Assembly (NCBI GenBank): GCA_000503915.1
Contig: CP006915.1
Coordinates: 210,001-242,000, forward strand
Direction: 5' to 3'
Source of the DNA: Candidatus Saccharimonadota bacterium
GTDB lineage: Bacteria > Patescibacteriota > Saccharimonadia > Saccharimonadales > Saccharimonadaceae
Length of the DNA stretch: 32,000 bases
Shown here: positions 29,722-30,195 of the stretch, one piece after another
Numbering within the stretch: the stretch's first letter is position 1
How the letters are laid out: every line of letters starts with the position of its first letter
Made by a program: the position numbers and the translations under genes
The notes under the pieces: model-generated
The model's database searches: none
Told to the model about the DNA's origin: nothing
What the model saw: only the letters and a program-made list of their open reading frames with translations

Positions 29722-29768
29722 AACAAAAACAGACCATCTAGTAGCGTGAATGCTTACTGGATAGTCTG
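29722..29768 (-). terminator. Rho-independent terminator downstream of the tRNA
   Basis: On the minus strand, a 14-bp stem (29768..29755 with 29743..29730, one mismatch) and an 11-nt loop are followed by TTTTTGTT (29729..29722). Confidence 0.55.
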
Positions 29769-29782
29769 TAAAATTATGCTCT

Positions 29783-30092
29783 TGGCTCCGGCGGCTGGAT
29801 TCGAACCAGCGACCTAATCGTTACACGTGATCATCTCTTTCGAGGATGCGTGGACTATCTCATCATCCATCAAAAAGATGGAGCAGGGCGCTTGTGAGGG
29901 AGTATTGTTGGGCTCACACTCTAGTCTCTGAACCTTCCAAGATCCTTTATCCCAATCTTGGCTTGGCTGCGGATTGTCATATCCACCTTAGGTGGACTTA
30001 GATTTCCCGCAATTCACCCTGTGTTTCCGTACTTGGTTACCCAAGAAGGCTGCCTATGACAGCGACCCGCTCTACCACTGAGCTACGCCGGA
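29783..30092 (-). tRNA. Intron-containing tRNA, most likely tRNA-Asn(GUU); the alternative splice junction gives tRNA-Thr(UGU)
   Basis: Exon 1 30092..30059 (TCCGGCG TA GCTC AGTGGTA GAGC G GGTCG CTGT) plus exon 2 29823..29783 (TAA CGATT AGGTC GCTGG TTCGAAT CCAGC CGCCGGA G CCA) fold into a 75-nt cloverleaf with encoded CCA. U1-A72 and G73 fit Asn. Confidence 0.85.
29824..30058 (-). ncRNA. Group I intron (tRNA-type, IC3-like), 235 nt, no ORF
   Basis: Core strings match those of the Azoarcus/Anabaena tRNA introns: GAATTGCGGGAAATCTAAGTCC, TATGACAATCCGCAGCCAAGCC, GGAAGGTTCAGAGACTAGAGTG. There are GNRA-capped helices, the 5' exon ends in U opposite an intron G, and the intron ends in G. Confidence 0.85.
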
Positions 30093-30195
30093 ATACCGTT
30101 AATTAGGTGCGTCTACTTCCGTAGATACAAAGGCTATTTTAACTGATTTCTCCAGAGGTGTAAATACTCTGACGCCGAGTTCTATCTCCCGATGT

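Follow-up and report, generated by a model that had tools for sequence, protein, structure and literature searches.

Introduction

Among the group I introns that interrupt bacterial transfer RNA (tRNA) genes, the tRNA-Leu(UAA) intron of cyanobacteria and plastids (Leu.3Ug, Anabaena type, subgroup IC3) is the classical case and has been proven by experiment. The tRNA-Ile(CAU) intron of Azoarcus (Aol6.Ile2.5Ug), also of subgroup IC3, is small, lacks an open reading frame (ORF), lies in the anticodon loop and has a GNRA-capped P2 and a GAAA L9. According to a preprint (Williams, 2020; bioRxiv 10.1101/2020.01.27.920355), the four classical intron-in-tRNA types have been expanded to 21, with 5292 calls; the class 'Asn.4Ug' is included and Pam37.Asn.4Ug is one of the covariance-model seeds. 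Here, we describe a tRNA-Asn gene with an intron of this class from Candidatus Saccharibacteria bacterium RAAC3_TM7_1 (TM7), found in a stretch of 32,000 nucleotides (nt) of contig CP006915.1 that is referred to below as the window.

The tRNA-Asn(GUU) gene of RAAC3_TM7_1 is, as judged from the sequence and with a high degree of confidence, interrupted between U35 and U36 by a 235-nt ORF-less self-splicing group I intron. The intron belongs to a class that was described in 2020 and is widespread, and the host type is not new. An earlier note on this DNA had taken an Asn host to be undescribed, which is corrected by the catalogued class Asn.4Ug and by the at least 35 further distinct tRNA-Asn introns that were found at the same site; a literature search on tRNA-Asn group I introns returned nothing beyond the Williams preprint. 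The observation is real, functional-looking and ordinary. It adds one well-documented member to the class catalogued in 2020 and leaves the knowledge of group I introns and tRNA biology unchanged; its practical value lies mainly in annotation.

Sequence analysis

Numbering is in window coordinates; the gene lies on the minus strand (30092..29783), as do the RNA elements and expression signals described here, and the window coordinate of an intron nucleotide is 30059 minus its intron position. Four proteins encoded in the window (570, 265, 228 and 793 amino acids) are exact matches to AHB42140.1, AHB42138.1, AHB42139.1 and AHB42127.1 of RAAC3_TM7_1, whose closed 845,464-bp genome was reported by Kantor et al. 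(2013; PMC3812714).

Homologous introns were collected by scanning one genome per species with a fixed core pattern, AGAGACTA..AGCGYCC..ATGAKATAGTCC, which gave at least 120 loci. Splice junctions were assigned using the eight-position U(-1)/omega-G logic of Williams (2020) applied to ARAGORN intron-mode calls. The 36 distinct tRNA-Asn introns that include the window's own were aligned (alignment A1) and a consensus fold was calculated with RNAalifold. Metagenomes were scanned for an uninterrupted anticodon arm in which two ambiguous bases were left open (CT-KK-TAA), which gave 46 contigs (L244-L289). Statements below on the numbers, hosts and relatedness of homologues hold among the matches listed in these scans.

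Results and discussion

The split tRNA-Asn gene

Exon 1 (30059..30092, 34 nt) extends from tRNA nucleotide 1 to U35 and comprises the acceptor 5' strand, the D arm, the anticodon-stem 5' strand and the loop nucleotides C32, U33, G34 and U35; U1 is present and the 5' splice site follows directly after U35. Exon 2 (29783..29823, 41 nt) contributes U36, A37 and A38, the anticodon-stem 3' strand, the variable loop, the T arm, the acceptor 3' strand, G73 and an encoded CCA. When joined (30092..30059 + 29823..29783), the exons are recognized by ARAGORN as a 75-nt tRNA-Asn(gtt) with a 7-bp acceptor stem, a 4-bp D stem, a 5-bp anticodon stem containing two G-U pairs and a 5-bp T arm, which reproduces the canonical cloverleaf proposed in the earlier note. 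The exon junction is predicted at GCUGU/UAACG (...GGGUCGCUGU/UAACGAUU...). The spliced tRNA carries U1-A72 and G73. In bacteria, Asn identity is specified by G73 together with the anticodon, and U1-A72 marks tRNA-Asn as the substrate of the amidotransferase (PMC9976931).

The intervening sequence (29824..30058, 235 nt) lies between U35 and U36. The Rfam family RF00028 (Intron_gpI) matched the window at 29831-30074 on the minus strand over model positions 1-253 of 253, with a score of 75.4 bits (gathering score 50) and E=1.2e-17, and was the sole Rfam family matched anywhere in the 32 kb. Together with the Asn call on the joined exons, this match bears out the proposal of a tRNA gene with a group I intron in its anticodon. 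The intron carries no ORF, as had also been proposed, because 235 nt are too short for an endonuclease gene and the ribozyme helices account for the whole length.

RNAalifold recovered P1, P2, P3, P4, P5, P6, P6a, P8, P9.0 and P9 from alignment A1. Compensatory changes occur in 37 of 55 pairs, with P2, P3, P4, P5, P6, P6a, P8 and P9 among the helices concerned, and a pairing check of the window copy found every helix intact apart from one mismatch in an extra hairpin that is discussed below. All the motifs that the earlier note had named were located: the strings of the core, two helices with GNRA caps (GUAA on P2, GAAA on P9), a 5-bp P1 with U·G at its end, and G as the last intron nucleotide. 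P1 (30049..30063; intron -5..-1/6-10) is formed by exon GCUGU (30063..30059) and the internal guide GCAGC (30053..30049) around a CAUAG loop, and ends in the U(-1)·G wobble. In all 36 aligned introns the guide GCAGC pairs with exon (G)CUGU, and the pairs C-G, U-A, G-C and U·G are invariant. The register of P1 in the Rfam alignment, which pairs the anticodon-stem bases GCGGGUCGC with GCAGCCUUC and includes two non-canonical pairs, was rejected on account of this invariance. P2 (30032..30045; intron 14-18/23-27) is CUUGG/CCAAG closed by L2 GUAA, and its pairs show compensatory changes in 11-25 sequences each. P3 joins CAGGGUG (30015..30021; intron 38-44) to CGCCCUG (29884..29890; intron 169-175), its outer two pairs with 12-13 compensatory changes each.

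P4 (UGCGGG/UCCGCA; intron 48-53/86-91), which shows covariation, encloses P5 (intron 57-58/81-82; internal loop UAAG/UAU) and P5a (intron 63-67/73-77), and the whole element occupies 29968..30011. P5 bears UCUAAG...UAUGA, similar to the 11-nt GAAA-tetraloop receptor of the Azoarcus intron (CCUAAG...UAUGG), and may act as a receptor. By analogy, L9 GAAA would dock in this motif and L2 on P8. P6 (GCC/GGU; intron 92-94/125-127) and P6a (CCAAGAU/AUCUUGG; intron 98-104/116-122) together span 29932..29967, P6a with 9-17 compensatory changes per pair. The P7 5' strand, G(A)GACUA (29922..29928; intron 131 and 133-137), contains the region of the guanosine-binding G-C pair and forms six Watson-Crick pairs with 29857..29852 (intron 202-207), leaving A132 bulged. 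P8 (29866..29882; intron 177-182/188-193) has the sequence UCCAUC-UUUUU-GAUGGA and up to 19 compensatory changes per pair. It is followed at 29852..29865 by J8/7 (UGAUGAGA) and the P7 3' strand UAGUCC, a core string common to the seeds Pam37.Asn.4Ug, Dba165.Lys.2Ug and Mba55.Phe.2Ug. P9.0, which pairs ACG (29851..29849) with CGU (29827..29825; intron 208-210/232-234), encloses P9 (CAUCCUC-GAAA-GAGAUG; intron 211-217/222-227; L9 GAAA) within 29825..29851. The last intron nucleotide, omega G (29824; intron 235), follows directly and is G in 36 of 36 homologues.

Choice of the splice junction

Of two conceivable junctions, CUGU/UAA, which removes 30058..29824 and yields tRNA-Asn(GUU), is the one indicated by the sequences. 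Splicing 2 nt upstream at both ends (exon 1 ...GCU, exon 2 UGUAACG...) would instead give tRNA-Thr(UGU). The two in-silico spliced versions were both submitted to ARAGORN and fold into equally good cloverleaves, Asn(gtt) and one with the anticodon TGT; the shifted position likewise offers U(-1) and a G with which the intron could end, and ARAGORN in intron mode calls the unspliced gene Thr(tgt). This call arises because the tool puts introns at a default position, which gives Thr likewise for many homologues whose sole consistent junction is that of Asn.

The Asn junction is favoured by five independent lines of evidence: the junctions of homologues, P1, P9.0, the uninterrupted copies and the identity elements. 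In the Asn-type loci, the window's included, the CTGT/TAA option always accords with the U(-1)/omega-G rule. At least ten of these loci (L019, L035, L050, L054, L058, L087, L091, L099, L101 and L121 among them) do not permit the Thr junction, and where it does exist the would-be anticodon is inconsistent, alternating between TGT and CGT. The Thr junction would also reduce P1 to 3 bp, against the P1 retained with its U·G in 36/36 introns, and would place the terminal G within P9.0. P9.0 joins the nucleotides after P7 to those before the last G by 2-3 bp and its first two pairs are present in 36/36 homologues; the pair types vary (AC/GU, AA/UU, AU/AU, GC/GC, GA/UC, AG/CU), with ten compensatory changes at each of columns 454-481 and 455-480 (RNAalifold, A1). 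All 46 uninterrupted copies of the tRNA body read CTGTTAA (anticodon GTT) and none reads CTTGTAA, the TGT form. Finally, U1-A72 and G73 are Asn features. The Thr alternative, which the earlier note had kept beside its preferred Asn-GUU junction, is effectively refuted and we assign it a vanishingly small chance.

Relation to the described classes

The comparison with Asn.4Ug is close. The host is tRNA-Asn (GUU after splicing, U1-A72, G73), the insertion follows loop position 4, and U(-1) and omega G are present; the Pam37 seed has the same host and the same site (CUGU/...g/UAA). The window intron shares with this class the core strings GGGUGAAUU, AGAGACUA, AGCGCCC and GAUGAGAUAGUCC and a hairpin between P7 and P3'. 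Homology to the seed can be followed through the Floridaenema and Phormidium copies, the 5' ends of which are near-identical to Pam37 and with which the window intron aligns over the whole core. Pam37 is longer, with an extra hairpin within the P1 loop, P4 UUCAAGG/CCUGA and a larger P6, whereas the window copy is a compact variant of the type found in the Candidate Phyla Radiation (CPR), with 235 nt and P4 UUGCGGG/CCGCA. Sibling classes with the same core pattern are Phe.2Ug, CAU.5Ug, Tyr.4Ug and Asp.4Ug, the last two of which also share the 5' exon target CUGU.

The Azoarcus intron resembles the window intron in the small ORF-less design and the GNRA-capped loops mentioned above, in its CCUAAG...UAUGG-type P5 motif (UCUAAG...UAUGA in the window) and in the core strings AAUUNNNNGAAA, GCCAAG, AGAGACUA and AUAGUCC. 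It differs in its host tRNA, in its site (after position 36 rather than 35), in the J8/7 context (AAGGCAUAGUCC versus GAUGAGAUAGUCC) and in lacking the P7-P3' hairpin, its sequence continuing directly as GA-C-GGCACC. The tRNA-Leu(UAA) intron likewise differs in host, in site (U34/A35) and in having no element at this point.

This extra hairpin (29894..29921; intron nt 138-165; 28 nt) lies between the P7 5' strand and P3'. Its closing stem, GAGUG/CCCUC, begins directly after AGAGACUA, and its loop, UGAGCCCAACAAUACU, contains a conserved UGAG...AACAAUA motif. The stem covaries strongly among homologues (GAAGG/CCTTC, GGGAT/ATCCC, CGGAT/GTCCG, GGAGTT/GACTCC, GGTGGT/ACCACC and others). We take its position to correspond to that of P7.1/P7.2 in subgroup IA introns. 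In the window copy the stem has one mismatch, U141·C160. A near-identical locus is present in the metagenome-assembled genome (MAG) GCA_003537595.1 (L001) and in two SRA assemblies, and the split gene of this MAG differs from that of the window solely at intron nt 160 (window 29899), where A in place of C makes a Watson-Crick pair, U141-A160, of the mismatch. An alternative register, GUGAG/CUCAC, would give a perfect 5-bp stem in the window; it was rejected and GAGUG/CCCUC was adopted because both the family covariation and the change in the sister strain fit the latter.

In the seed alignment of Williams (2020; 10.1101/2020.01.27.920355), an insertion between P7 and P3' is present in Pam37.Asn.4Ug, Dba165.Lys.2Ug, Mba55.Phe.2Ug, Mga42.Leu.1Ug and the tmRNA introns, and the seeds Leu.3Ug, Arg.5Ug, fMet.2Ug and Ile2.5Ug have just GA-C at that point, without an insertion. 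The likeness to the Azoarcus and Anabaena IC3 introns that the earlier note had drawn is thus valid in part. It holds for P3-P8, L2, L9 and the P5 receptor, and the compact IC3 architecture is present at the sequence level (a GNRA-capped P2, GAAA as L9 together with a receptor-like motif in P5, and no P5abc extension). It does not extend to the stretch from the P7 5' strand to P3', where an IC3 intron would be expected to have no pairing and the window intron has its covarying hairpin; this hairpin is missing from the four classical IC3 tRNA introns.

As a separate observation, the tRNA-Asn introns show two architectures at the P7.1 position. The majority, including the window's variant, have one hairpin, in whose loop UGAGGA..AACCAAUAA is conserved. 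The second architecture consists of two short hairpins, for example GAGCTTCGGCTC + CCCCGG..CCGGGG, and occurs in about nine Asn introns (including L019, L054, L069, L087, L091, L099, L101 and L121), where the insert follows AGAGACTA.

Proposed splicing and functional status

In the proposed mechanism, transcription of the precursor would probably begin at a promoter some 44 nt before the gene, and the precursor would end at a hairpin and U run just past the encoded CCA. The intron would fold into P1-P2, P4-P6 and the P3-P7-P8-P9 pseudoknot, with the extra hairpin at the P7.1 position, and L2 (GUAA) and L9 (GAAA) would be placed for tertiary contacts, the latter with the receptor-like P5 motif. 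Pairing of the guide GCAGC with exon GCUGU (the last anticodon-stem base and C32-U35) would mark the 5' splice site by the U35·G wobble, and the attack there would come from free guanosine bound in P7. With P9.0 then holding the terminal G (29824) in this P7 site, ligation of the exons would give the loop CU-GUU-AA and a normal tRNA-Asn that has U1-A72 and G73.

The sequence elements that would serve the two ends of the transcript are as follows. A promoter-like site at 30136..30164, TTTACA-17 nt-TAAAAT, lies about 44 nt upstream of tRNA position 1 and matches the consensus at 10 of 12 positions; we infer a promoter function for it from these letters only. Downstream, a terminator-like hairpin with a U run (29725..29769) starts 14 nt after CCA. 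Its 10-bp stem is ACAGACUAUC/GAUGGUCUGU and its minimum free energy is -24.5 kcal/mol (z=-4.9 versus shuffles). A simple terminator scan missed this hairpin because its loop is long.

Some points weigh against a working intron. Catalysis is deduced from established group I chemistry. The match of the promoter-like site, though well placed, is no better than chance (1.2 expected in shuffles). A comparison of the guide region with the 3' exon found no convincing P10 pairing, which would be weak or absent. Covariation is uninformative for P7, whose bases were fixed by the search pattern and so do not vary in A1. The U141·C160 mismatch is a further such point. The last, a flaw in a peripheral hairpin, and the derivation of splicing from sequence are also what could be said for a decayed locus, in which the intron would be a splicing-dead relic, the tRNA a pseudogene and decoding the task of another tRNA-Asn gene elsewhere in the genome. 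Decay is, however, difficult to reconcile with the state of the locus. No damage is seen in the core helices, the J8/7 string, the two P7 strands, the U·G pair or the terminal G, all of which agree with the conserved consensus of the family; the exons form a perfect cloverleaf that is 2 nt from intron-less orthologues; the independent assembly of the sister strain differs at one intron nucleotide, by a change that improves pairing; and there is no other tRNA in the 32-kb window. We therefore regard a dead relic as very unlikely and retain the reading of a functional, self-splicing intron.

Distribution and uninterrupted copies

Of the 120 genome loci listed, 94 were classified as split tRNAs by ARAGORN intron mode and the junction test. 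At least 38 of these split tRNAs are of the Asn type with CTGT/TAA and represent at least 36 distinct introns, the window's own counted. According to the record titles, tRNA-Asn introns at this site occur in about ten phyla. The hosts include Patescibacteria (Saccharimonadales, Peribacteria, Peregrinibacteria), Cyanobacteria (Hormoscilla, Floridaenema, Phormidium), Acidobacteriota and Nitrospirales, and further Elusimicrobia, Margulisiibacteriota, 'Deltaproteobacteria', Gemmatales, Aminicenantes and Anaerolineales. The closest relative of the window intron is that of a Saccharimonadales MAG (L040), with 72% identity and a very similar tRNA body.

Introns of the same host tRNA cluster together: 35 of the 36 Asn introns are closest to another Asn intron, and the mean identity is 62% within this group versus 56% to Phe or CAU introns. 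Exceptions to this grouping connect Asn with Tyr, which has the same 5' target CUGU. Other hosts of the intron core are about 25 tRNA-Phe (CU/GAAGA), about 20 tRNAs with a CAU anticodon (acceptor GGGCC.., CUCAU/AA) and a few Tyr and Asp tRNAs at CUGU/ (loci L004-L123).

The uninterrupted tRNAs on the 46 metagenomic contigs, which are up to about 1 Mb in length, differ from the spliced window tRNA at 2-5 nt (2/75 in the closest). The 570-residue beta-lactamase-like protein that is encoded upstream of the tRNA in the window has a homologue at 32 of the 46 loci; these 32 loci look like intron-less orthologous sites because they retain the homologue of the same upstream gene. Judged by this comparison, the intron was acquired sporadically: related Saccharibacteria have the same tRNA without it at the orthologous loci. 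The intron-bearing locus and the 46 intron-less copies, many of them in the same gene neighbourhood, offer a presence/absence system for the spread of endonuclease-free group I introns. A second, uninterrupted tRNA-Asn gene close to the split one was found neither in the 32-kb window nor in the 35 genomic Asn loci listed; such a neighbour was seen only in viral loci.

The intron core pattern also occurs in at least 120 IMG/VR viral contigs (L124-L243). Among the viral matches listed, six of 124 lie in split tRNAs; because there are just six, most viral copies presumably interrupt phage protein genes. The sequences suggest that the P7.1-hairpin intron family is common to phages and bacterial tRNAs. 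A viral-classified contig of 436 kb (L178; IMGVR_UViG_3300032782_000001) contains a split tRNA-Asn of the Asn.4Ug type (at about 2083) approximately 700 nt from an uninterrupted tRNA-Asn(gtt) (2787-2861), and a call of the Asn.4Ug type was also obtained on the viral contig L158.

These elements can be combined into a tentative history, which we consider possible and on balance rather doubtful. The intron would be a recent, endonuclease-free arrival at what is possibly the only tRNA-Asn gene of the 845-kb genome; it would belong to a P7.1-hairpin family with abundant viral relatives and would have spread by guide-directed reverse splicing into tRNAs with a CUGU loop (Asn, Tyr, Asp). If so, ribozyme activity would be essential for reading AAU and AAC codons, and intron mobility would be ongoing in CPR bacteria with phages as a reservoir.

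Annotation

Standard tRNA finders miss the split gene, since ARAGORN in default mode reported no tRNA anywhere in the 32-kb window. The accessible text of the RAAC3_TM7_1 paper gives 43 tRNAs by tRNAscan-SE and mentions neither an intron nor tRNA-Asn (PMC3812714). According to the authors of tRNAscan-SE 2.0, the program was not designed for group I introns, and such introns made tRNAs seem missing in 36 genomes (PMC8450103). The tRNA-Asn of RAAC3_TM7_1 is therefore probably unlisted, because finders either miss the gene or mis-call it (Thr in intron mode) and tRNAscan-SE was not built for introns of this kind. In a reduced CPR genome, the lack of a listed tRNA-Asn might be mistaken for a gap in decoding.

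About 26 of the 120 listed genome loci have no split-tRNA call (for example L014-L016, L024, L025, L027 and L033) and may be ARAGORN misses or introns in other genes. In addition, the default intron placement of ARAGORN mislabels many split tRNAs (as Gln, Thr, Arg and others), which constitutes an annotation hazard.

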